64,000 nt of DNA, from contig CBDAOY010000007.1 of assembly GCA_965198225.1 (NCBI GenBank), positions 544,001 to 608,000 of the forward strand, given 5' to 3'. This document shows positions 30,082-58,040 of this stretch, piece by piece. The position numbers and the translations under genes were made by a program. The notes under the pieces are model-generated. The model was not told the DNA's origin and did not search any database. It saw only the letters and a list, made by a program, of their open reading frames with translations. Positions within the stretch are counted from its first letter, which is position 1; every line of letters begins with the position of its first letter. This DNA is from Terriglobia bacterium. GTDB lineage: Bacteria; Acidobacteriota; Terriglobia; 20CM-2-55-15.

Positions 30082-30807
30082 ATGTCTAAGACTGCGGGAA
30101 TCGTCGTCATAGGCAACGAGATCCTGTCCGGCAAGACGCGTGATGAGAACGCCGCGTACTTTCTCCGAGAGCTCAGGGACCTGGGTGTCGACGTCCGAAA
30201 GGTGTCGGTCATCCCCGACGAACTCGAGTGCATCCGCGACGAGATTCAGTCGTTCTCATCCCGTTTCGACTTCGTCTTCACGTCAGGCGGTGTCGGACCC
30301 ACTCATGACGATGTCACGATCGAAGGCATCGCCTCGGCTTTCGGCCGCGGCGTCTACCGCCACCGGGAACTGGAGTCGATGCTTCGAGGATACTATCAGG
30401 AGAGCGTGACCGAGGCCACGCTGCGTATGGCGAACGTGCCTGAAGGGGCTTTCCTCGTCCAGCGCGGCCGGATGTGGTTTCCTGTAGTGGCCGTCGAAAA
30501 CGTCTACACTTTTCCGGGAGTACCGGAAATACTCGTGGCCAAATTCGATCGGATCAAGGAGATGTTCCGCCAGGATCCGTTCTTTGTGAAGGAAGTGTTC
30601 CTGCGCGCCGACGAAGGTCAGATTGCCGACATCCTCCACGAGATCATCGACAGATTTCCGGAACTACTCCTGGGTTCCTACCCCACCTTCAATAACCCCG
30701 ATTACATGGTCAAGCTGACGCTGGAATCGAAGGACAAGAGCTATCTCGACGAAGCGTTCGACACCCTGGTGGGCCGGCTGACCGAAGCCGAGATCGCGCC
30801 CCTGTAG
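30082..30807 (+). CDS. Molybdopterin-binding / CinA N-terminal domain protein
   Basis: IGNEILSGKTRDEN, SGGVGPTHDD, FPGVP. Confidence 0.85.
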   Translation: MSKTAGIVVIGNEILSGKTRDENAAYFLRELRDLGVDVRKVSVIPDELECIRDEIQSFSSRFDFVFTSGGVGPTHDDVTIEGIASAFGRGVYRHRELESMLRGYYQESVTEATLRMANVPEGAFLVQRGRMWFPVVAVENVYTFPGVPEILVAKFDRIKEMFRQDPFFVKEVFLRADEGQIADILHEIIDRFPELLLGSYPTFNNPDYMVKLTLESKDKSYLDEAFDTLVGRLTEAEIAPL

Positions 30808-30815
30808 GGGGGGAT

Positions 30816-30988
30816 CGTAGGCCGTAGGGCGTTATCCGTAGGTCGTTGGAGTCTGAGCGGCGGTGACCGCCGGTTCTTACGGAATCAGTTCTCCCTTTCC
30901 GACTTTTCTGCCTAACGAAAACCCGAGAGTCAAGAGCCAAACTTCAATAAGGGACAACGGATAACGGCCTACGGACAACGGCCTACGA
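30816..30988. repeat. Inverted heptamer arrays (CCGTAGG family)
   Basis: cgtaggccgtagggcgttatccgtagg ... acggataacggcctacggacaacggcctacg. Confidence 0.75.
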
Positions 30989-31018
30989 ACTAGTAGCCGG
31001 TGGCCACCGGCTACTAGT
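30989..31018. repeat. Perfect 30-bp palindrome
   Basis: ACTAGTAGCCGGTGG|CCACCGGCTACTAGT. Confidence 0.9.
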
Positions 31019-31119
31019 CAAACAACCCAGGCTGCTCATGCCTCCGGATCGGTATAGCGTCCAGGACTGCGTCAAAACCCAACTCCGCACACAGGGGGTG
31101 ACCTGTTCGGGATGCCCTT
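31013..31119. repeat. 107-bp direct repeat of the 3' end of the 5'-3' exonuclease gene (left boundary of the islet)
   Basis: Matches 33648-33755 except for a 1-nt indel (acagggggtg vs acagggtggtg). Confidence 0.95.
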
Positions 31120-31482
31120 CGATGGCGCGATGATGGGCTGCTCACGCAATCCCGCCCACCTAGCAATACCCGGCCGAGGGCGGTCCATTGGAAAGCGATG
31201 GTTTCATGAACAGATCAGGTTGAACGGTTGGGGTGTTATGCGGAGCTGTAGGAGACAAGAGGCCGAGGACCGCGACAAATGGATCAAACAGCAACCGCGC
31301 CCGAAGCGCAGAATCGCACGGGCCGAAGCGCACGAATCCGCGAGAATGTGATCACTCGCGGGAGCGAAACCGAACAATCAGGGACTCCGTTTTGCCTCCG
31401 GAAGTCACGTGTCTTTTTTCGATCACCCGCGGTGTTCGTCGAGCACGGTCGGGCGTGTGGGGTGGCCTCTCGATCGGAACGC

Positions 31483-32287
31483 CTAGTTCGCTGCGCGGAC
31501 GTGCTCGATGCCCAGGGCCTCCAAGCGGTCAGCGATCGAACCGATGCCGGTGTACGCGGCCGCCATGAGATTGGGGCCGTAGAGGTGGGGTCGCCCTTCA
31601 CCGACGATTTCGGCGACCGCGCGGCGGAGGCTCTCCCGCAGAAGGAGATCCTCTCCCGGGTCGGGGACGTAGCTGTAGAAGAGGGCGCGCCGCGGCCGTC
31701 CGTCCTCCCGCTTCCAGGCGGAGTGCCAGAGCCGGTTGTGCCAGACCACCGCGTCGCCGGGATTCGTGTGGACCGATACCGCGCCGGGGATGCCGTCTCT
31801 TTTCAAGCGCAGGCGCGGTTTACCATCCTCCCATTCCCCGCACGCCGCAAACAACCCCTTGTTCCATTCCGCGTGATGGGTACCCGGAATGACATTGAGG
31901 GCGCCCTGCTGTGCGCTTGTTTCGTCCAGGTAGTACGTCACACGAATCGTCTGGACCGGGTCTCCCGGAACCCCTGCGGTGTGCCACGGCAGGTCGTCCA
32001 TGTTGGAAATGACATAGTTCCCCAGGTACAGGCAGGGTGTCGACCAGAGGTCCGTCATCGCCTCGAATCCGGGGGTGGGCGGCCGGTGCCGCAAATGCCG
32101 GGTCTCGATCCTCGGCGAAGAACAGGATCCGGCTGCCGGCATCGCCGAAATTGTCATACCGCGGCGCATCCGGCATCACGCGGTCGAACGTCTTGGTCAA
32201 CGAGTCGAGCTCGCCGGCCTCCAGACATCCCCGGACCACGACGAACCCGAACGCCCGAAACATACCGACTTCCAGCTCACTGAGCAT
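31483..32287 (-). pseudogene. PhyH-family Fe(II)/2-oxoglutarate oxygenase or halogenase-like enzyme, one frameshift at ~32070
   Basis: N-terminal FRAFGFVVVRGCL in one frame; LPWHTAG...YYLDETSAQQGALNVIPGTH...PGDAVVWHNRLWHSA...RRAL in the adjacent frame; G5 run at 32071-32075. Confidence 0.8.
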
Positions 32288-32515
32288 GCCGCGCCACTCC
32301 GGACATTCGATCTCCCGACAACCCCCGTCGGTCAGCGCGATCTATTCTAATCAACGGGTCGCCGAAAGGGTGCCATGCCCCCGCGACCCGGCAGCCGTCT
32401 GCCAGCGAGAGGCTACGGGATTTCTCTTGACTGTGCCAGGGCGCGATTCCAAGGTTGACCTAACGACTTCTCCGCAGATAAGACGAACAGTGACCTTACG
32501 TCGAGGGGGAACACC

Positions 32516-32905
32516 ATGCCGCAAAACGAAGAGGCGATCAAAGAACTCTGGGCGAAGCTCGTGGCCCAGTCGTGGGGGGATGCGAATCTGAGACAGCGCA
32601 TGCTCGATGAGCCGGCCGCGGTCTTGAAGGAGAACGGAGTTCAGGTACCCGACGGGTTCCGCGTCCACACCTTCGAGGACGACGGTCAGACCATCGTTCT
32701 ACCTGTCAATGTCGAGCCGGCTGAAACAGAGCTGTCCGAAGAGGAGCTGGAGTCCGTCGCTGGGGGCGTCGAAGTCATCGCCAACCCGACGATGGGCGCT
32801 TTGAAGGGCTTCGACTCACTGGAGTTCGTGGGCCCGTGCCTCAAACCCAAAGGTGCACTCGGGTCTGAAGGCGGGAAGACGGGTGCAATGGGGCCGTGCT
32901 TCTGA
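32516..32905 (+). CDS. NHLP-leader (nitrile hydratase-like) RiPP precursor 1
   Basis: KLVAQSWGDANLRQRMLDEPAAVLKENG...ELSEEELESVAGG double-Gly leader followed by a 45-aa core; RBS gaggggga. Confidence 0.9.
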   Translation: MPQNEEAIKELWAKLVAQSWGDANLRQRMLDEPAAVLKENGVQVPDGFRVHTFEDDGQTIVLPVNVEPAETELSEEELESVAGGVEVIANPTMGALKGFDSLEFVGPCLKPKGALGSEGGKTGAMGPCF

Positions 32906-32981
32906 ACCGACTAACGCGGCCATGGCTGCCTGGAGCTACAGGTACTCAAACAGGCAAACCGGATCGCGCCGGGGAAACGAT

Positions 32982-33380
32982 ATGCAAAACGAAGATGACA
33001 TCAAACAACTCTGGGCGAAGCTCGTGGCCAAGTCGTGGGAGGATGCGAATCTGAGACAGCGCATGCTCGATGAGCCGGCCGCGGTCTTGAAGGAGAACGG
33101 AGTTCAGGTACCCGCCGGGTTCCGCGTCCACACCTTCGAGGACGACGGTCAGACCATCGTTCTACCTGTCAATGTCGAGCCGGCTGAAACAGAGCTGTCC
33201 GAAGAGGAGCTGGAGTCCGTCGCTGGGGGCGTGGAAGTCATCGCCAACCCGACGATCGGCGCTTTGAAGGGCTTCGAGTCGCTGCTTGTCATCGGCCCGT
33301 GCGATGGACCTAGAGAGGGGATGGGTCCGTGCGCCCGGCCTAAAAGCGGGAAGACGGGTGCCATCGGGCCGTGCTTCTAG
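32982..33380 (+). CDS. NHLP-leader RiPP precursor 2
   Basis: Near-identical leader ending VAGG followed by a 49-aa core with three GPC motifs. Confidence 0.9.
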   Translation: MQNEDDIKQLWAKLVAKSWEDANLRQRMLDEPAAVLKENGVQVPAGFRVHTFEDDGQTIVLPVNVEPAETELSEEELESVAGGVEVIANPTIGALKGFESLLVIGPCDGPREGMGPCARPKSGKTGAIGPCF

Positions 33381-33575
33381 GTTTGCTGCTTAGGGTGCAA
33401 CAATAACGTCAGGGAACGCACCCCCTATTTGCAGTAAGCTGAGACCTGCACAGCGGCCAGACCGTCGCGGGGGACGGAATACGTACACGCCGGCGGACCT
33501 CACACCCGACGCACCACCGCGTCTATCAACGGACCGGCCCGCCGCAGGCGCAGACGGATAGTTTTTCTGGTCAGC

Positions 33576-33624
33576 ACCACCCCAGCGCTTCGCGCCACCC
33601 CTCCTCATCTGAGGAGGGGAGTTT
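33576..33624. repeat. CCCCTCC/GGAGGGG hairpin repeat (second copy at 46955-47014, opposite orientation)
   Basis: Reverse complement aactcccctcctcagatgaggaggggtggcgcg...ggggtggt resembles 46955-47014. Confidence 0.7.
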
Positions 33625-33648
33625 AGGTGTCGCCCCGGCCACGGACCA

Positions 33649-34566
33649 CTAGTCAAACAACCCAGGCTGCTCATGCCTCCGGATCGGTATAGCGTCCAGG
33701 ACTGCGTCAAAACCCAACTCCGCACACAGGGTGGTGACCTGTTCGGGATGCCCTTTGCGGTAGCGCAGCAAGTCGGGTGAGATGTCCATATCGACGTCGC
33801 ACCGAATCCTCGCCAGCTCGCGACTCATCCGGACAGTGTCCAGGTTTTCGCGGATGCGTTTGAGAATGCGCTCGCGTCCCCTGAATGAAACTCCGTCAAG
33901 GTCGGAGTTCACGATGTCTTCGACCGTTCGGCAGGCAGCCAGGAGTTTGCTGGCAGTCTTCCCCCCGACTCCCAGGACCCCGGGGATGTTATCGACGGAG
34001 TCGCCGAGCAGAGCCAGCAGGTCGGGCACCTGGGCGGGCTCAACGCCCAGCTTGTTCTTGACCCCAGCCCGGTCGAGCCAGACGTTCTTCGCGAGATCGT
34101 AGATCCTGATGCGTTGGTCGACCAACTGAGCAAGATCCTTGTCTCCGCTGACGATGACGACGGGATGACCCAGGTCAGCCATGCGCACGGCAAGCGATCC
34201 GATGACATCATCGGCTTCGAAGGTTTCGACCTGAAAGGCGGCGATGCCGACCGCTTCAGTGATCCGCTGGCAGTACTGAAACTGGATCTTCAGGTCGTCG
34301 GGCGGTGAAACCCGATTCGCCTTGTACTCGGTGAAGAGTTCACGCCGGAAAGAATGTGCCCCCTCGAACGCAGCAGCGATATAGGGGGGATCCTGCTCTT
34401 TGATGATGCGCAGCAGGGTTCGCAGGTAACCCAGCACCGCGTTGGTTTTCATCCCGGACGGGGCAGTGATCGTTTCGGGCAGACCGTAGTAGGCACGAAA
34501 GATGTAGTTCATCGCATCGATGAGGAAGACCGGTCTCGAATTGAGGGGTAGCGAAGTCACGTCCAA
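33649..34566 (-). CDS. Stand-alone 5'-3' exonuclease (Pol I N-terminal / flap endonuclease-like)
   Basis: LIDAMNYIFRAYY, YKANR, EADDVIG, SGDKDLAQL, GDSVDNIPGV.GVGGKTA. Confidence 0.92.
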   Translation of the reverse strand: MDVTSLPLNSRPVFLIDAMNYIFRAYYGLPETITAPSGMKTNAVLGYLRTLLRIIKEQDPPYIAAAFEGAHSFRRELFTEYKANRVSPPDDLKIQFQYCQRITEAVGIAAFQVETFEADDVIGSLAVRMADLGHPVVIVSGDKDLAQLVDQRIRIYDLAKNVWLDRAGVKNKLGVEPAQVPDLLALLGDSVDNIPGVLGVGGKTASKLLAACRTVEDIVNSDLDGVSFRGRERILKRIRENLDTVRMSRELARIRCDVDMDISPDLLRYRKGHPEQVTTLCAELGFDAVLDAIPIRRHEQPGLFD

Positions 34567-43802: not shown

Positions 43803-46800
43803 GTGGTCAAAATGAACACAGTGTGGCGACTAATGTTCTCACTGATTGTGGTAGTGATCGTCGCGCTGATCGTGGCATTGCCTGCGTCCGCACAGTCGAT
43901 TCTAAGCTTCCCGCACGTTGTCCAGACCCCCACCGTCCGGACAGCCTTTTCGCTGTCGAATCTCTCTGATTTGGACGCAGAGGTCGATTTCACCCTCTAC
44001 TCTCTTGACGGCAGAATCGTCACCGGTCTCGCAAACCCCGTGCGCTACCGCATCGAGGCTCGGGGGGCGCTTTCGATGTTCGCGGACGAAGTGTTCGCGG
44101 CCAACGGATTCGAAGGCTGGGTTCAGGTAACGAGTCCGACCTCCGGAATAGACGGGTTTCTCTACGAGGGTGACTTCCGATCCGCTCTGGACGCCGCGCG
44201 CGGGGCAGTGGCCCTTACGGACCAGATCGTGCCCTGGCTGGGCGATTCCGGCGGTGATCTCCGTATCATCAACTCCTCCTCTCAGGCAGCGTCCCTCAAC
44301 GTTGCGTTTGCCAACAGCCGGGGAGACATCGTCGGCTCGGTGCCGGCGATCCTGAACGCCAACTCGGGTATCAGCGTCCCGACTTCCGATTTCATACTGC
44401 AGGGAGGCGGAAACCTGACGGCCCGGGTGACGTCCAGTGTCGGGGTGGTAGCCCAGGCCCTGGTCGAAACGAACGGCTCTCTCGTTCTCGTGAACGGGCA
44501 ATCAGCATCCGCAACAGCTACCGTTCGTAGGGCTCCCCACGCAATCCTCGGCAACGGTTTTGATTCCATGCTGGTTCTTGCGAACCCGACGGGCCAGGCG
44601 GTGACCGTTTCGGCGACGTTCTTCGACGAGAACGGCGGTCCGGTTCATGCTTCGCTCAGTGCCCCATCGCAGCAACTCCTCACCATTCCGGCGAACGGCT
44701 CGGTTTCAGTCGGCGCCACCCAGTTGACGGGACTCCTTTTTGCCCCGGCCGTAAATGGATGGATCGAAGTGACTTCGCCGAACGTTCCCCTCGGTGCCTC
44801 GGTCGTGATTACCCAAGGCTTGAACCGGACGGTCTACCCGTTGCAGAGCGAGGGTCTCGGCCGGGTCTTCTACCCACAACTTTCGGAAGCACAAGGTCTG
44901 TTGACGGGACTCGTCCTGGTGAATCCGAGTCCGGTTTCCGCCACAGTTGCACTCAGGCTGGTCGATGGCGACGGTTTCGCGATCAGCAGTTCGGAAATCG
45001 AGTTGGCGGCCAATTCGAAGCAGACCGCGTATGTGCGCGACATCCTGCCGGGGTTCGACCCCAGCCGGGGTGGGCTGCTCTTGCTGGAGTCTTCGGAACT
45101 CTACGGGCTCGAGATCGTTGGCGACGAGGGAGGTGGGTTGCTTGCCGCCGTTGAACCCGGATCCCTGACAGCCGACTTCGAACCGAAGCCGAGTACGGCT
45201 CGACCCGAGCTGGTGGACGTCTCCCCGCTCGAGGGGCGAACGGGCGATTCGATTCGGATACGCACTTCGAACGTGGGTGACGACGGCACGGTGTTTCTCG
45301 GGGACCGGCCCCTCACCGCGCGGTTCCTGGCTCCCGGCATCGCAATTCAGGTCGTCGACATCCCCGCCATCGAACCCGGATTCGTCGACCTGCGAGTCCG
45401 CTCCGCGGACGGGCGCGAATCCGACCCCGTGCCTATACTGGTGCTGCCGGACGACGCGACTTCCCTGCGAGAGGTTCGTGGCCGAGCTTTCTACGAGAAA
45501 GTGGACATCGGCACCGACGGGTTGAACCTGGCTCGTCCGGTCATGGTGCCGATACGATACGCCCGCGTAGACATCCTGAACCGTCAGACCGGCCTTCTCG
45601 TTTCGGTCGCTGATACTGATGAGAACGGCCATTTCCGTGCCGCCGTCCCGGAAGGTCCCGATTACAGTCTTCGTGTCCTGAGCCAGCTCCGATCTTCAGA
45701 GGCCGTTGTCGCCGACAACACCAACGGCGGATCCGTTTTCTTTGTGGGCGCGGACGTCGACACCGAGGGGACTCCGATTCTTGTACGCGCGGGATTCGAC
45801 GCGAACGTCGGGCGCTTTCAACATTCTCGAAGTCGTTAGACGGGGCAGTGCCTACGTGGATGCAGTCGAGCCGGCCCTGCAATTGCCCCAGTTGACGATC
45901 TTCTGGAGTCCTATCAACACGAACCGTGATGGAAACCCGTTCCTCGGCGAAATCGGAGGCACGTTCTTTGACGTTTCCGACTCTACCGCCTTCATTCTCG
46001 GCGACCGAGCTACCGATTCCGACGAGTTTGATGACTCGGTGATTCTCCACGAGTACGCTCACCTGCTCGCGGCCAGGTTCTCCGCCGATGATTCTCCGGG
46101 CGGGGCGCATGTTCTCGGCGATGTCCTTGATCCCCGCGTCGCCTGGTCGGAAGGCTGGGCTAATTTCTTTTCCGCCGTCGTGCGAAACGATCCCGTCTAC
46201 CGGGATTCCATGGGACAGGACGGCGCAACAGCTCTCGAGTACGACCTCGAGGTCAACAGTCCGGCCGGAGACCAGCCCGGATACTGGAGTGAGTTTTCCG
46301 TTCATTCGATTCTGTGGGATCTGTTCGATGAAAGTGATGATCCCGGCGACGTCTTCCAGCTTCCGTTTACCACAATCTGGAGCGCCTTCAGATCGCTGGC
46401 CCTGGAGCGGTTTGTGTACTTGCCCATTTTCCTCGACCGTTTGGCCGCCCTTGACCCGGAAGCAGCTTCCATCCTGGACCAGATCGTTCGGCTGCGGGCC
46501 ATAGATTTCTCATCGGCAAACGATCCCAGCGTCTCGAACCCCTTCCCACGCATACTCCCGGACACGTTGCCGGTCACCGGGGAGGTCGATTCGGCGTCGC
46601 GCGCGCGAGACAATCTCGCGCAATCGGCACATCTCTATTCTTTCGACGTCGATGGCGGGGCCGTTTCGATCCGCCTGGATGTGACGGGGCTCGGTCCGGC
46701 GCAGAACCCAGACGCGAACGACCTGGATCTGTTCCTGAGGGATTCGGAGGGGCGCATCATCGCGCGTTCCGATCGAGGCTTGAACGGACAGTCGGAATTG

Positions 46801-46923
46801 ATCTCGACATTCCTGCCTGAAGGACGGTACGTAGTCGAAATTCGCAGTTTCTACACTCGAGGCGAGACCGGAGAGTTGGTCTTCAATTCCGGTGCCTACC
46901 GGCTGATCGTGAGGCGGCCGTAA
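43803..46923 (+). CDS. Large secreted multidomain zinc metalloprotease-like protein, split by a 1-nt frameshift at ~45785
   Basis: Signal peptide, repeated beta-rich modules, IPT/TIG-like region; second frame has ILHEYAH...WSEGWANF and a PPC-like DLDLFL...GRYVVEI. Confidence 0.7.
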
Positions 46924-55145: not shown

Positions 55146-56246
55146 ATGGGAGAGGCGAAGATAGACTCGGAGATTGCAAGAAAGGTCAAGCAGGGAGAAC
55201 GACTTAGCTTCGAGGACGGCGTCGCGCTGTACCGCAGCAGCGACGTACTGGGGTTGGGTCGACTGGCCGAGAGGGTACGGGTGCGTCTCAACGGTCATTC
55301 CGCCTACTACAACGTCAACCGTCACATCAATTACACCAACGTCTGCGTCATCGACTGTCAGCTGTGTCAGGGCGCCTACGCCCGCAAGCCGGGTGAAGAC
55401 GGCGGCTACACGATGGACCTGGAGCAGGTCTTCCGGTTTGCCGCGCAGAAATACAACGATTCGGTGACCGAGTTTCACATCGTCGGCGGACTCAACCCGG
55501 AGTTGGAGTTCCAGTACTACATCGATTTGCTTGCAGGTCTAAGGCAGCGCTTTCCGGGGGTCCACCTGAAAGCTTTCACGATGGTGGAGCTCGATTTCTT
55601 CACGAAGATTACACGCCAGCCCCTGGAGTGGGTAATCGGGAAGCTTCGCGACGCCGGAATGGGAAGCTGTCCCGGCGGCGGCGCGGAGATTTTTGCCGAG
55701 CGCGCGCGACCGATGATTGCCGGACACAAGATATCGGGAGATCGCTGGCTCGAGTGTGCACGAACCGTTCATCGCATGGGCATCCGCTCGAACGCGACCA
55801 TGCTCTACGGGCACATCGAGACGACCGAGGAGCGGGTGGATCATCTGATCCGACTGCGCGAGTTGCAAGACGAAACAGGAGGGTTTAATTGCTTCATCCC
55901 GTTGGCCTTTCATCCCGAGAACACCGTGCTGGAACACCTACCTCCGACGACCGGCACGGACGATATCCGAACCATCGCGGTGTCGCGTCTGATGCTCGAT
56001 AACTTCTCCCATATCAAGGCTTACTGGGTCACGATCACGCCGTCGCTGGCTCAGGTCGCTCTGCGGTTCGGCGCCGACGACCTGGACGGTACGATCATCG
56101 AAGAGAGGATCATCCACGGCGCCGGCAGTCAAACCAGTCCCGGTTTGACCAGAGAGGAGATCGAGCAGCTGATTCGGGACGTCGGATGCGACCCGATCGA
56201 GCGCGACACGCTCTACAATCGGGTCGGCAAGAAGCAGGCGGTGTAG
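55146..56246 (+). CDS. mqnE: Aminofutalosine synthase MqnE (CofH-like radical SAM)
   Basis: NRHINYTNVC..DCQLC, HIVGG, PGGGAEIF, NATMLYGHIE, HIKAYW. Confidence 0.85.
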   Translation: MGEAKIDSEIARKVKQGERLSFEDGVALYRSSDVLGLGRLAERVRVRLNGHSAYYNVNRHINYTNVCVIDCQLCQGAYARKPGEDGGYTMDLEQVFRFAAQKYNDSVTEFHIVGGLNPELEFQYYIDLLAGLRQRFPGVHLKAFTMVELDFFTKITRQPLEWVIGKLRDAGMGSCPGGGAEIFAERARPMIAGHKISGDRWLECARTVHRMGIRSNATMLYGHIETTEERVDHLIRLRELQDETGGFNCFIPLAFHPENTVLEHLPPTTGTDDIRTIAVSRLMLDNFSHIKAYWVTITPSLAQVALRFGADDLDGTIIEERIIHGAGSQTSPGLTREEIEQLIRDVGCDPIERDTLYNRVGKKQAV

Positions 56247-56295
56247 ACGACGGGTCCAGCTTACCTGTCCCGCAATCCAGGCACCGGAAGCGCGC

Positions 56296-57009
56296 ATGCT
56301 GAACCCGAAAGTGATGGCCCTGGCGAAAAAAGCGGTTCCTTCGGCCATCTATCGTCGCCTGGATCCGTTCGAGGCTACCATTGCCTCCTTTGTCGAGAGC
56401 GTCGCCACGAACACGCCCGACGACCATCTGGTTCTGGATGCCGGCGCCGGCGAGTCGCGATTCCGGGGACTGTTTGACCACGCCCGCTACCTAACGATCG
56501 ATTTCGGGTTAGGGGATCGAGACTGGGATTACAGCGGCCTCGACATCATCGGGAGGTGCGAGGAGCTGCCGCTCGCTGATGCGAGCTGCGATAGGGTGCT
56601 CTCGGTGGTCGTGTTGGAGCACACACCCGAACCGGCCCGCGTGATCGAGGAATTCCACCGGGTGCTGAAGTCTGGAGGCAGTGTGCACATGGTCGTGCCG
56701 CACATGTGGGAAGAACACCAGCGTCCCTTCGATTACTTTCGATACACCGCGTCGGGGATTCGCTACCTCCTCGAGGAGTCCGGCTTCCGGATTCTGGAGA
56801 TTCGCCCGGTGGGCGGGTTTTTCTGGCAACTCGGCAGACGGCTGATGGGCGTACTGGCTTTTACGCAGAAGGGTTGGAGGTGGATTCTCTTTCCCTTACT
56901 GGCGCCGATCTTCGGGTTGTTCCTGCCGCTCTGCTGTTATTATCTCGATGCGCTCGATCGAGACCGTGCGTACACGTTGGGTTATGTCTGTGAGGGACTG
57001 AGAGAGTGA
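56296..57009 (+). CDS. Class I SAM-dependent methyltransferase
   Basis: LDAGAGE, VLEH.PEP, PFDYFRYT. Confidence 0.88.
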   Translation: MLNPKVMALAKKAVPSAIYRRLDPFEATIASFVESVATNTPDDHLVLDAGAGESRFRGLFDHARYLTIDFGLGDRDWDYSGLDIIGRCEELPLADASCDRVLSVVVLEHTPEPARVIEEFHRVLKSGGSVHMVVPHMWEEHQRPFDYFRYTASGIRYLLEESGFRILEIRPVGGFFWQLGRRLMGVLAFTQKGWRWILFPLLAPIFGLFLPLCCYYLDALDRDRAYTLGYVCEGLRE

Positions 57010-58040
57010 ATCGCAAGATAGGGAACCGGATGAGGATCGCGGCCAGTTATTTTCGCCGACAGGCGGTGCTGCCCGGCGGGCCCATCGAAGTCACGCTGGA
57101 GAGCACTGCGAAGTGTAACCTCTACTGCCCGATGTGTCCCCGTCACATCTATACCTTCGACGACGAGAGCATGGACCTGGATCTTTTCCGGAAGATTGTT
57201 GCCGACTGCAAGGACTACGTCGAGTTCGCCTGGCCGTACGGTATCGGCGAGCCGATGATTCATCCGGACATTTTCGAGATGATCCGGATCACGCGTGAAG
57301 CGGGCATTCGAACCGGGATGTCCACCAACGCTACCCTTCTGGACGACAAACGTGCCGACATGCTGCTCGATTCCGGATTGGACTACCTGATTCTGGCCTT
57401 CGACGGCGCCACGAAGGAGAGCTACGAGAGGTACCGCGTCGGGGCCGAGTTCGAGCGGACCCGGCAGAACATTTTCAATCTCCTGAAGAAAAAGCTCGAC
57501 CGCGGATCATCGATGTTCACCGTCGTCCAAATGGTCCTCCTGAAAGATAACCAGCACGAGGTCGACGCATACCGAAAGCTTTGGGATATCGAAGGCGTGG
57601 ACGAAGTACGTTTCAAGCGCGACGAAGTCCACATCGACGGGTCTCGCATCCCCGATTCGCAGCTGGAGGGCCAGCGGCGGAACCCCTGTCATCTCCTGTG
57701 GCGCGGACCACTCTACGTGCGCTACGACGGAAAAGCATTTCCGTGTTGCTACATGTACGACGAGGAACCGATAGGTGACTTGCGGGAGCAGTCCGTGATG
57801 GAGGTCTGGAACTCTCCGGCCATGGTCGCGTTGCGTGAGGCACACCTGGCCGGTGACGTCAGCGACTACCCTCTATGCCAGAACTGCCAGGCGGTACGCC
57901 CCGGCCTGCCCGCATTTTACGGCAGCCTGATGGTCGACGGCCTGACCGTCCGGAAGGCCGTCCCCGTCCTGGAAAAACTCGCGAAGTTTTACAAGATCAA
58001 CGTTTTTGAGAAGAAGCAGCCGGCAGGACTGGCTGACTAA
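57006..58040 (+). CDS. Radical SAM protein with SPASM/Twitch domain
   Basis: CNLYCPMC, GEPMIHP; C-terminal C...PCC...CQNC. Confidence 0.88.
   Translation: MNRKIGNRMRIAASYFRRQAVLPGGPIEVTLESTAKCNLYCPMCPRHIYTFDDESMDLDLFRKIVADCKDYVEFAWPYGIGEPMIHPDIFEMIRITREAGIRTGMSTNATLLDDKRADMLLDSGLDYLILAFDGATKESYERYRVGAEFERTRQNIFNLLKKKLDRGSSMFTVVQMVLLKDNQHEVDAYRKLWDIEGVDEVRFKRDEVHIDGSRIPDSQLEGQRRNPCHLLWRGPLYVRYDGKAFPCCYMYDEEPIGDLREQSVMEVWNSPAMVALREAHLAGDVSDYPLCQNCQAVRPGLPAFYGSLMVDGLTVRKAVPVLEKLAKFYKINVFEKKQPAGLAD

Follow-up and report, generated by a model that had tools for sequence, protein, structure and literature searches.

A frameshifted PhyH-fold gene beside two NHLP precursors and its probable kinship with a small clade lacking the Asp iron ligand

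Organization of the locus

We analysed a 64,000-nucleotide stretch of a Terriglobia genome (contig CBDAOY010000007.1), referred to here as the window. A PhyH-family gene lies on its minus strand at 31483-32287 in two reading frames, the N-terminal piece starting at 32287 and the C-terminal piece ending at 31483. This gene and two divergently oriented genes for NHLP-leader RiPP precursors, 228 nt away, are the only genes between two duplicated borders, within an insert of 2.5 kb. The features of the locus are as follows.

31013-31119, minus strand: second, displaced copy of a 5'-3' exonuclease 3' end (~107 nt); left insert border
31483-32058, minus strand: C-terminal piece of the PhyH gene (P0001), 191 aa, with the whole double-stranded beta-helix core
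32059-32077, minus strand: frameshift zone, containing a G5 run at 32071-32075; a net 2-nt loss after H-P-R-I fits best
32066-32287, minus strand: N-terminal piece, 74 codons; its PF05721 match is weak and falls short of the cut-off (E 0.036)
32084-32086, minus strand: Pro68, a private change at a conserved column (Leu, Phe or Val in homologues) and possibly decay
32516-32905, plus strand: NHLP-leader RiPP precursor 1, 129 aa; TIGR03793 at 64.8 bits (cut-off 50.9)
32982-33380, plus strand: NHLP-leader RiPP precursor 2, 132 aa; TIGR03793 at 66.8 bits (cut-off 50.9)
33648-33755, minus strand: right insert border, formed by the 3' end of the intact exonuclease gene (5'-3' type, 33649-34566)

The C-terminal piece matched PhyH (PF05721) with an E-value of 1.1e-9 and 39.4 bits, above the gathering score of 22, which places it in this family. 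The N-terminal piece was 36 to 54% identical to the N-termini of homologues. A 334-aa ORF on the plus strand (31279-32283) was considered and rejected as a gene; it runs antisense and has no Pfam match.

Both precursors exceeded the TIGR03793 cut-off and carry a double-glycine site followed by a variable core. The core of precursor 1 has 45 aa, beginning after the GG site at 32768, and contains two GPC motifs; that of precursor 2 has 49 aa, beginning at 33231, and contains three. The leaders are identical at 240 of 247 nt, whereas the cores have diverged but end alike. All five core cysteines of the two precursors stand in Gly-Pro-Cys, and the cores are devoid of Trp.

The sequences at 31013-31119 and 33648-33755 are the same save for one 1-nt indel. 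This duplicated-border pattern probably marks an insertion at the 3' end of the exonuclease gene, of which no integrase remains, and the PhyH gene probably arrived together with the two precursors. GC3 was 0.75 to 0.81 in the insert genes and 0.69 to 0.79 in nine flanking genes (one further value, 0.36, probably derives from out-of-frame coordinates); lying within or just above the flank range, the composition does not mark the insert. No Rfam match was found in 30780-33800 and no sigma-70-like promoter was found, and terminator-like sites numbered 2 against 2.2 expected. Several repeats lie at or near the borders. A perfect 15-bp inverted repeat (30989-31018) overlaps the stop codon in the displaced copy of the exonuclease 3' end, and imperfect inverted and short direct repeats without an Rfam match occupy 30815-30988, in the gap after a plus-strand gene ending at 30807. 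A palindromic element at the right insert end (33575-33625), present in a single copy in the window, resembles REP-type repeats. Elsewhere in the window, two ORFs (678 and 405 aa; DUF5719 and a PPC domain) occupy different frames of the plus strand at 43803-46923; they overlap by ~134 nt and look like a single secreted protein broken near 45800.

The break in the reading frame

The first-pass annotation of this DNA had reported a frameshift near the G run. The frameshift was confirmed, but a slip in the run was not the favoured position of the break, as an extra base there would leave the helix one residue short. The conserved His (32077) and the Met that opens the C-terminal piece (32058) are 19 nt apart in the window gene, compared with 21 nt in all 86 near-full-length homologues, which are ungapped in this region. 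The N-terminal frame runs on as H-P-R-I, matching the family. A net loss of 2 nt at ~32063-32065 is thus the simplest account. The G run is the only run of at least five in the gene and adjoins the break, and another gene of the window is also apparently split, so that a read error is possible; nevertheless, we consider the break fairly likely to be real. The private Leu68Pro change, four codons upstream of His-Pro, was counted toward real decay, and so was P0002, which lies on a different contig, starts at the same Met, reads HTA and carries a second break. The P0001 cluster occurs on three contigs, which may not have been sampled independently. The window gene has four private changes at conserved columns, and 7 of the 86 intact homologues have at least four, so that this count appears high but not extreme. 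With no uninterrupted frame of about 267 codons and with these signs of decay, the gene is a frameshifted copy, probably a dead one of a member of the Asp-less clade described below.

The W-H-T-A motif and its relatives

The residues of the iron site and its surroundings, all on the minus strand, are listed here with their occurrence in 80 aligned relatives with an HxD motif and in six sister proteins with an HxT motif.

31986-31975: W-H-T-A (codons TGG CAC ACC GCA), the proximal His26 followed by Ala28 at the Asp-ligand position
31983-31981: proximal His26, codon read from the sequence; shared by 80/80 HxD relatives
31977-31975: Ala28 (GCA); the column is Asp in 80/80 HxD relatives and Thr in 6/6 sisters
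31725-31723: distal iron ligand His112 (RLWHSA); in 80/80 HxD relatives and 6/6 sisters
31692-31687: Arg pair of PRRAL, codons read from the sequence
31690-31692: Arg123, the sole invariant column among 104 aligned proteins
32008-32016: Tyr15 and Ile17, clade-specific residues of the site lining; most HxD relatives have Asp and Trp at these positions, the six sisters Phe and Leu
31960-31962: Asp33 (His+7), candidate relocated acid; Glu in 6/6 sisters, an acid in 0/80 HxD relatives
31942-31944: Arg39; Lys in 79/80 HxD relatives, aligned with Lys137 of HygX

The motif is real and in register. His26, Trp25, His112 and Arg123 are each present in 80 of the 80 HxD relatives, whose column 28 is likewise invariably Asp, and the missing Asp is therefore not an alignment slip. 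The codons at 31986-31975 and those of the distal His and the downstream Arg pair bear out the first-pass annotation, which had noted WHTA in place of WHxD with the other residues retained. The protein lacks the His-x-Asp/Glu...His facial triad of canonical PhyH hydroxylases because of Ala28. It retains the two His and the 2OG-binding Arg of the halogenases (His26, His112 and Arg123), and Ala occupies the carboxylate position both here and in P0002. Arg123 aligned with the corresponding Arg of EctD and of EvdO2, and we presume that it is the residue binding the C5 carboxylate of 2OG.

The first searches returned 97 proteins: 92 with HxD, the window gene and P0002, two without the region and one with a disturbed frame. 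HxD was thus present in 92 of the 95 non-self matches, and none of these HxD proteins exceeded 53% identity over the full C-terminal piece. A single genome scan yielded 31 loci (13 Poribacteria, 7 Latescibacterota, 6 Caldilineaceae and 5 others), and no Asp-less relative was among them; all 30 loci that cover the motif have HxD. An exhaustive HMMER search retrieved P0099, which is intact and reads H-T-T, and a search with a four-row alignment added five further HxT proteins (P0242-P0246). The six HxT relatives read PWHTTG[LM]PGE; four of them look full length, while P0246 has no start and the end of P0244 is altered. Among the 108 relatives of at least 150 bits that cover the His, from 276 fetched proteins, there were 99 HxD, 6 HxT, 2 HxA and 1 disturbed sequence. 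The two HxA sequences are the window protein and P0002, and no intact HxA relative was present among the 276. Conservation of HxA in intact homologues, on which the first-pass annotation would have had its proposal checked, was therefore not found. Its condition for abandoning the proposal, namely that close intact homologues all have HxD, applies to the great majority of the matches but not to the phylogenetically nearest ones. The HxT proteins are 44 to 50% identical to the window protein, and the best HxD relatives reach 53%.

In NCBIfam, none of five PhyH proteins matched a family above the cut-off, and the clusters returned by the ESM Atlas were generic ones for PhyH and NHLP. Searches of plasmids yielded a single distant match for P0243 and another for an NHLP precursor. 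Among more distant PhyH relatives, P0122, P0181, P0234 and P0221 have HxG, three of them as W-H-G-G, and may form a separate Asp-less group; three others have HxE. One HxD relative (L028, 8001-8568) is itself frameshifted directly after the motif.

A clade without the Asp ligand

In a tree of 38 rows, the window protein grouped with the six HxT proteins and with P0091, a fragment 56% identical to the window protein in which the motif region is absent (support 99/98). Residues 13-40 and 107 were then taken out of the trees to avoid circularity, and the group was kept, with an SH-aLRT of 80 in 36 rows and support of 83/89 in 27 rows, although it was not starred. It is thus very likely that the window protein belongs to an HxA/HxT clade.

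The Asp-less proteins differ from the HxD relatives at more than the ligand. At column 28 the window protein has Ala and all six sisters Thr. All seven Asp-less proteins have four further changes in the site. Column 15 is Tyr in the window protein and Phe in 6/6 sisters, as opposed to Asp in 70/80 HxD relatives, and column 17 is Ile and Leu (6/6), respectively, as opposed to Trp in 68/80. At column 33, seven residues after the proximal His, the window protein has Asp and the sisters Glu (6/6), whereas the HxD relatives have Arg in 55/80. Column 39 is Arg in the window protein and in 6/6 sisters. Both His and Arg123 are invariant across the clade and the HxD relatives. The seven proteins may reflect a single evolutionary event, and the co-variation does not therefore count as independent evidence.

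The clade, which is small, undescribed and has intact members, would have arisen from the HxD family, its Asp ligand being lost (to Ala here and to Thr in the six sisters) as the surrounding site was rebuilt. The uncharacterised HxD family of Poribacteria, Latescibacterota and Caldilineaceae would be the parent, with 38 to 56% identity, the same length and the same conserved blocks. The loss of Asp predates the window lineage and has been kept in intact genes. The first-pass annotation had allowed that Ala could be pseudogene drift. This does not hold for the loss of Asp, which intact relatives share, but may hold for the Ala itself, since a single transition would turn the Thr codon ACA into GCA. 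Its counter-argument, the two substitutions from GAC to GCA, fails because the nearest motif-bearing relatives have Thr.

Structure models and fold comparison

The AlphaFold model of the C-terminal piece (191 aa, 104-row alignment) had a pLDDT of 94. Its best fold matches were PhyH-type Fe/2OG enzymes: SptF was the top Foldseek match (E 2e-7), and EvdO2 was the best in VIA-align (Z 10.9, RMSD 2.7, 124 aligned residues), compared with 8.6 for SyrB2. The intact sister P0243 was modelled from an eight-row alignment with a pLDDT of 80, residues 103-107 being under 50. HygX, AviO1, EvdO1, EvdO2 and SnoK gave its best folds, with Z scores of 17-19; SnoK, AviO1, EvdO1 and HygX (17.7 to 18.8) ranked above HalB (16.0), CurA (14.7) and SyrB2 (14.1). 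In these models the ranking would indicate fold and not function. A complex prediction of the C-terminal piece with Fe and precursor 1 had a score of 0.16 (mark, 0.32) and weighs on neither side of the argument.

The comparison with HygX is of interest for the site. In HygX the motif is HxG, the Glu has been relocated and Lys137 sits in the resulting gap; this enzyme is an oxidative cyclase and not a halogenase (PMC13374393). The window protein likewise lacks the acid of HxD. In the clade profile, Arg39 aligned with Lys137 of HygX and provides a comparable basic residue, yet 79/80 HxD relatives have Lys there as well. The acid of HygX belongs to an E-x3-H motif before the distal His, and this position is Asn108 in the window protein and Thr in 6/6 sisters; the parallel with HygX is therefore inexact. 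Identity to HygX and to the orthosomycin and nogalamycin oxygenases is at most 24%, and their substrates are sugars or anthracyclines.

The Fe/2OG halogenases (SyrB2, CytC3, CurA-Hal, BesD/HalB, WelO5, AspX and BtnX) share with the window protein the DSBH fold, the two His, the 2OG Arg and Ala in place of the carboxylate. However, there is no close sequence relation (the family profile matched BtnX weakly, with an E-value of 2.4e-6 and over the N-terminal part only), the sisters have Thr rather than Ala or Gly, and a new acid is present at His+7. Furthermore, NHLP precursors are found nearby here instead of a carrier protein.

Chemistry of the Asp-less site

Fe/2OG enzymes form an Fe(IV)=O species and abstract hydrogen, and the halogenases among them exchange the acid for Ala or Gly, which lets a halide bind iron (PMC13489965; PMC8407142). 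We favour, with a probability of about 0.45, the reading that the window gene is a frameshifted copy from a carboxylate-free PhyH-fold Fe(II)/2OG clade that carries out a non-halogenating oxidation. In an intact member, two His and 2OG would bind the Fe, and the Fe(IV)=O formed there would abstract H. Something other than halide would fill or block the third facial position, the most likely candidate being the acid at His+7, directly or via water, and Arg39 would occupy the gap left by Asp, as in HygX. Such an enzyme would hydroxylate, desaturate or close a ring rather than chlorinate. Asp33 may, however, merely pair with Arg39.

The first-pass annotation had proposed a possible aliphatic halogenase acting on a ribosomal peptide. 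On this reading, the open site would take chloride and the enzyme would chlorinate an unactivated C-H bond, possibly on the NHLP cores, with Arg39 as a second-sphere anion binder. The absent carboxylate and the otherwise intact site, with two His, Ala and the 2OG Arg in the window protein, agree with this proposal. In addition, the same motif has been used to mine 946 predicted halogenases, of which AspX and BtnX were validated (PMC13489965), and a single D-to-G change made SadA chlorinate (PMC8407142). The want of a HygX-type Glu four residues before the distal His, the weak profile match to BtnX and the co-insertion with precursors also speak for it. However, with Thr in the sisters, an acid at His+7 and HygX as a precedent, the assignment as a halogenase is weakened: the only HxA sequences are broken genes, the Ala of the window gene is one base from a Thr codon, and the added acid, if close to the site, would be unfavourable for an anion. 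Another Asp or Glu as third ligand was what the first-pass annotation had named as evidence against halogenation, and the His+7 residue, acidic in 7/7 Asp-less proteins, is a candidate for such a role. Motif-only HxA/G calls can moreover be false positives (PMC12871659), and HygX is one such case. Reported Fe/2OG halogenases have Gly or Ala only at the carboxylate position in the accessible part of PMC13489965. We thus regard halogenation by this clade as rather unlikely, and a halogenase that also acts on a RiPP as distinctly so. For SyrB2, we assume that Asn123 (His+7) and Thr143 line the chloride site; no supporting paper was found, and this was not used as evidence.

The clade could also be non-catalytic or metal-poor, that is, a binding protein or an accessory subunit that keeps the fold and the His pair and does not activate O2. 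One of three iron ligands is gone, Thr is not a reported substitute, and metal-independent cupins are common (PMC13489965); in the accessible part of the supplementary 2His-Xn table there are four matches to 'thr', and the two shown are taxon names. No relevant HxT halogenase or oxygenase was found in the largely open-access literature searched, and PMC2938197 uses 'HxT' for a different motif. Against this, both His and both Arg are kept in 7/7 Asp-less proteins over ~50% divergence, which is what continued binding of Fe and 2OG would predict, and we find a non-catalytic clade improbable. An ordinary HxD hydroxylase that has decayed or been misread, with an Ala of no functional meaning, would fit the frameshift, the four private changes including Leu68Pro, the second break in P0002, the prevalence of HxD among the non-self matches and the second gene of the window that looks split. 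It does not explain the four further site changes or the tree position, both in common with intact HxT proteins, and P0002 likewise reads HTA; this account is very unlikely. Its weaker form, in which Thr drifted to Ala after the death of the gene, may be true alongside the non-halogenating oxidation that we favour.

More speculatively, a two-His iron site might chlorinate aliphatic C-H bonds of the NHLP cores, or the open site may instead take the Cys thiolate of Gly-Pro-Cys as a ligand and form a C-S bond by rebound; taken together, these open-site possibilities appear unlikely.

Relationship to the NHLP precursors

The likeliest substrates of an intact enzyme would be the two co-inserted precursors, at their repeated Gly-Pro-Cys. 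We regard this link, for which co-insertion is the chief argument, as about as probable as not. Independent of the chemistry, the enzyme may instead be a passenger that does not act on the precursors, these being either orphans that are modified in trans or what is left of a larger cluster, a reading whose chances we place slightly below even. No NHLP match was found in 478 kb around the 31 related loci, all HxD or weak; no precursor lies within 8 kb of the HxD family members. The 49 neighbour ORFs at 11 of the 31 loci were mostly sugar-metabolism, oxidoreductase and other PhyH genes. A complete proteusin/NHLP cluster was not found either, as no class-defining maturase (cyclodehydratase or lanthionine synthetase) and no peptidase/transporter was present in the insert or among the 57 window ORFs scanned, and the divergent genes do not form one operon. 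On the other hand, the enzyme and the precursors are the sole genes between the duplicated borders, and the occurrence of every core Cys in one repeated motif would fit a site-specific modifier. The ribosomal-peptide substrate of the first-pass annotation is thus favoured by the probable co-insertion and disfavoured by the absence of such precursors from 31 of 31 related loci.

Fe/2OG hydroxylases of NHLP precursors are known, namely PoyI, EreI and PhaI (PMC9505594). They resemble the present gene in being encoded with an NHLP precursor; unlike the insert with its one enzyme, their clusters contain several. NHLP clusters with varied enzymes, cupins included, are common in sponge symbionts (PMC9426513). 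RiPP halogenation is also known, NHLP-led cases included, through the flavin-dependent enzymes SrpI (on the NHLP precursor SrpE), MibH and ChlH (PMC12615548). These enzymes have another fold and mechanism and act on Trp rings, which the present cores lack. In the literature searched, nothing relevant turned up on PhyH enzymes with NHLP precursors, and no title named a radical halogenase acting on RiPPs.

A row of genes for an MqnE/CofH-like radical SAM protein, a methyltransferase and a radical SAM/SPASM protein lies on the plus strand at 55146-58040, 22 kb from the precursors. HxD relatives often occur in runs of several PhyH genes (L001, 5696-8573; L002, 4278-8570; L030, 8001-9511), some of which include mannonate dehydratase or Gfo/Idh oxidoreductase genes.

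Implications

Loss of the carboxylate from the facial triad is the main signature for mining radical halogenases. The value of the present locus is limited by the broken copy, by the bulk cataloguing of putative HxA/G PhyH halogenases and by a peptide link drawn from one locus. Putative Ala/Gly halogenases annotated as PhyH, including some from Poribacteria and Acidobacteriota, appear in the accessible part of a published supplementary table, and the window family may already sit in the halogenase atlas of PMC13489965. From its sequence, the window protein appears to be an Fe/2OG oxygenase of the PhyH fold that is atypical in lacking the site carboxylate; it is neither a canonical HxD hydroxylase nor a demonstrated halogenase.

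Action of the enzyme on the GPC-rich NHLP cores, if true, would be new RiPP chemistry, in the form of halogenation at aliphatic positions or of oxidation directed at Cys. All RiPP halogenases that the accessible part of the review PMC12615548 names are flavin-dependent, and a halogenase acting on these cores would be the first Fe/2OG radical halogenase on a ribosomal peptide. If either open-site reading, chlorination or the thiolate, is true, the HxT sisters would represent an iron site of a new kind, 2His-Thr. The locus exposes a clade that lost the carboxylate in two ways, to Ala and to Thr, with a co-ordinated rebuilding of the site. This undescribed HxA/HxT clade with its rebuilt site is the durable finding, and its intact members make it possible to ask directly if a site without the carboxylate is necessarily that of a halogenase and if Thr is compatible with halide.
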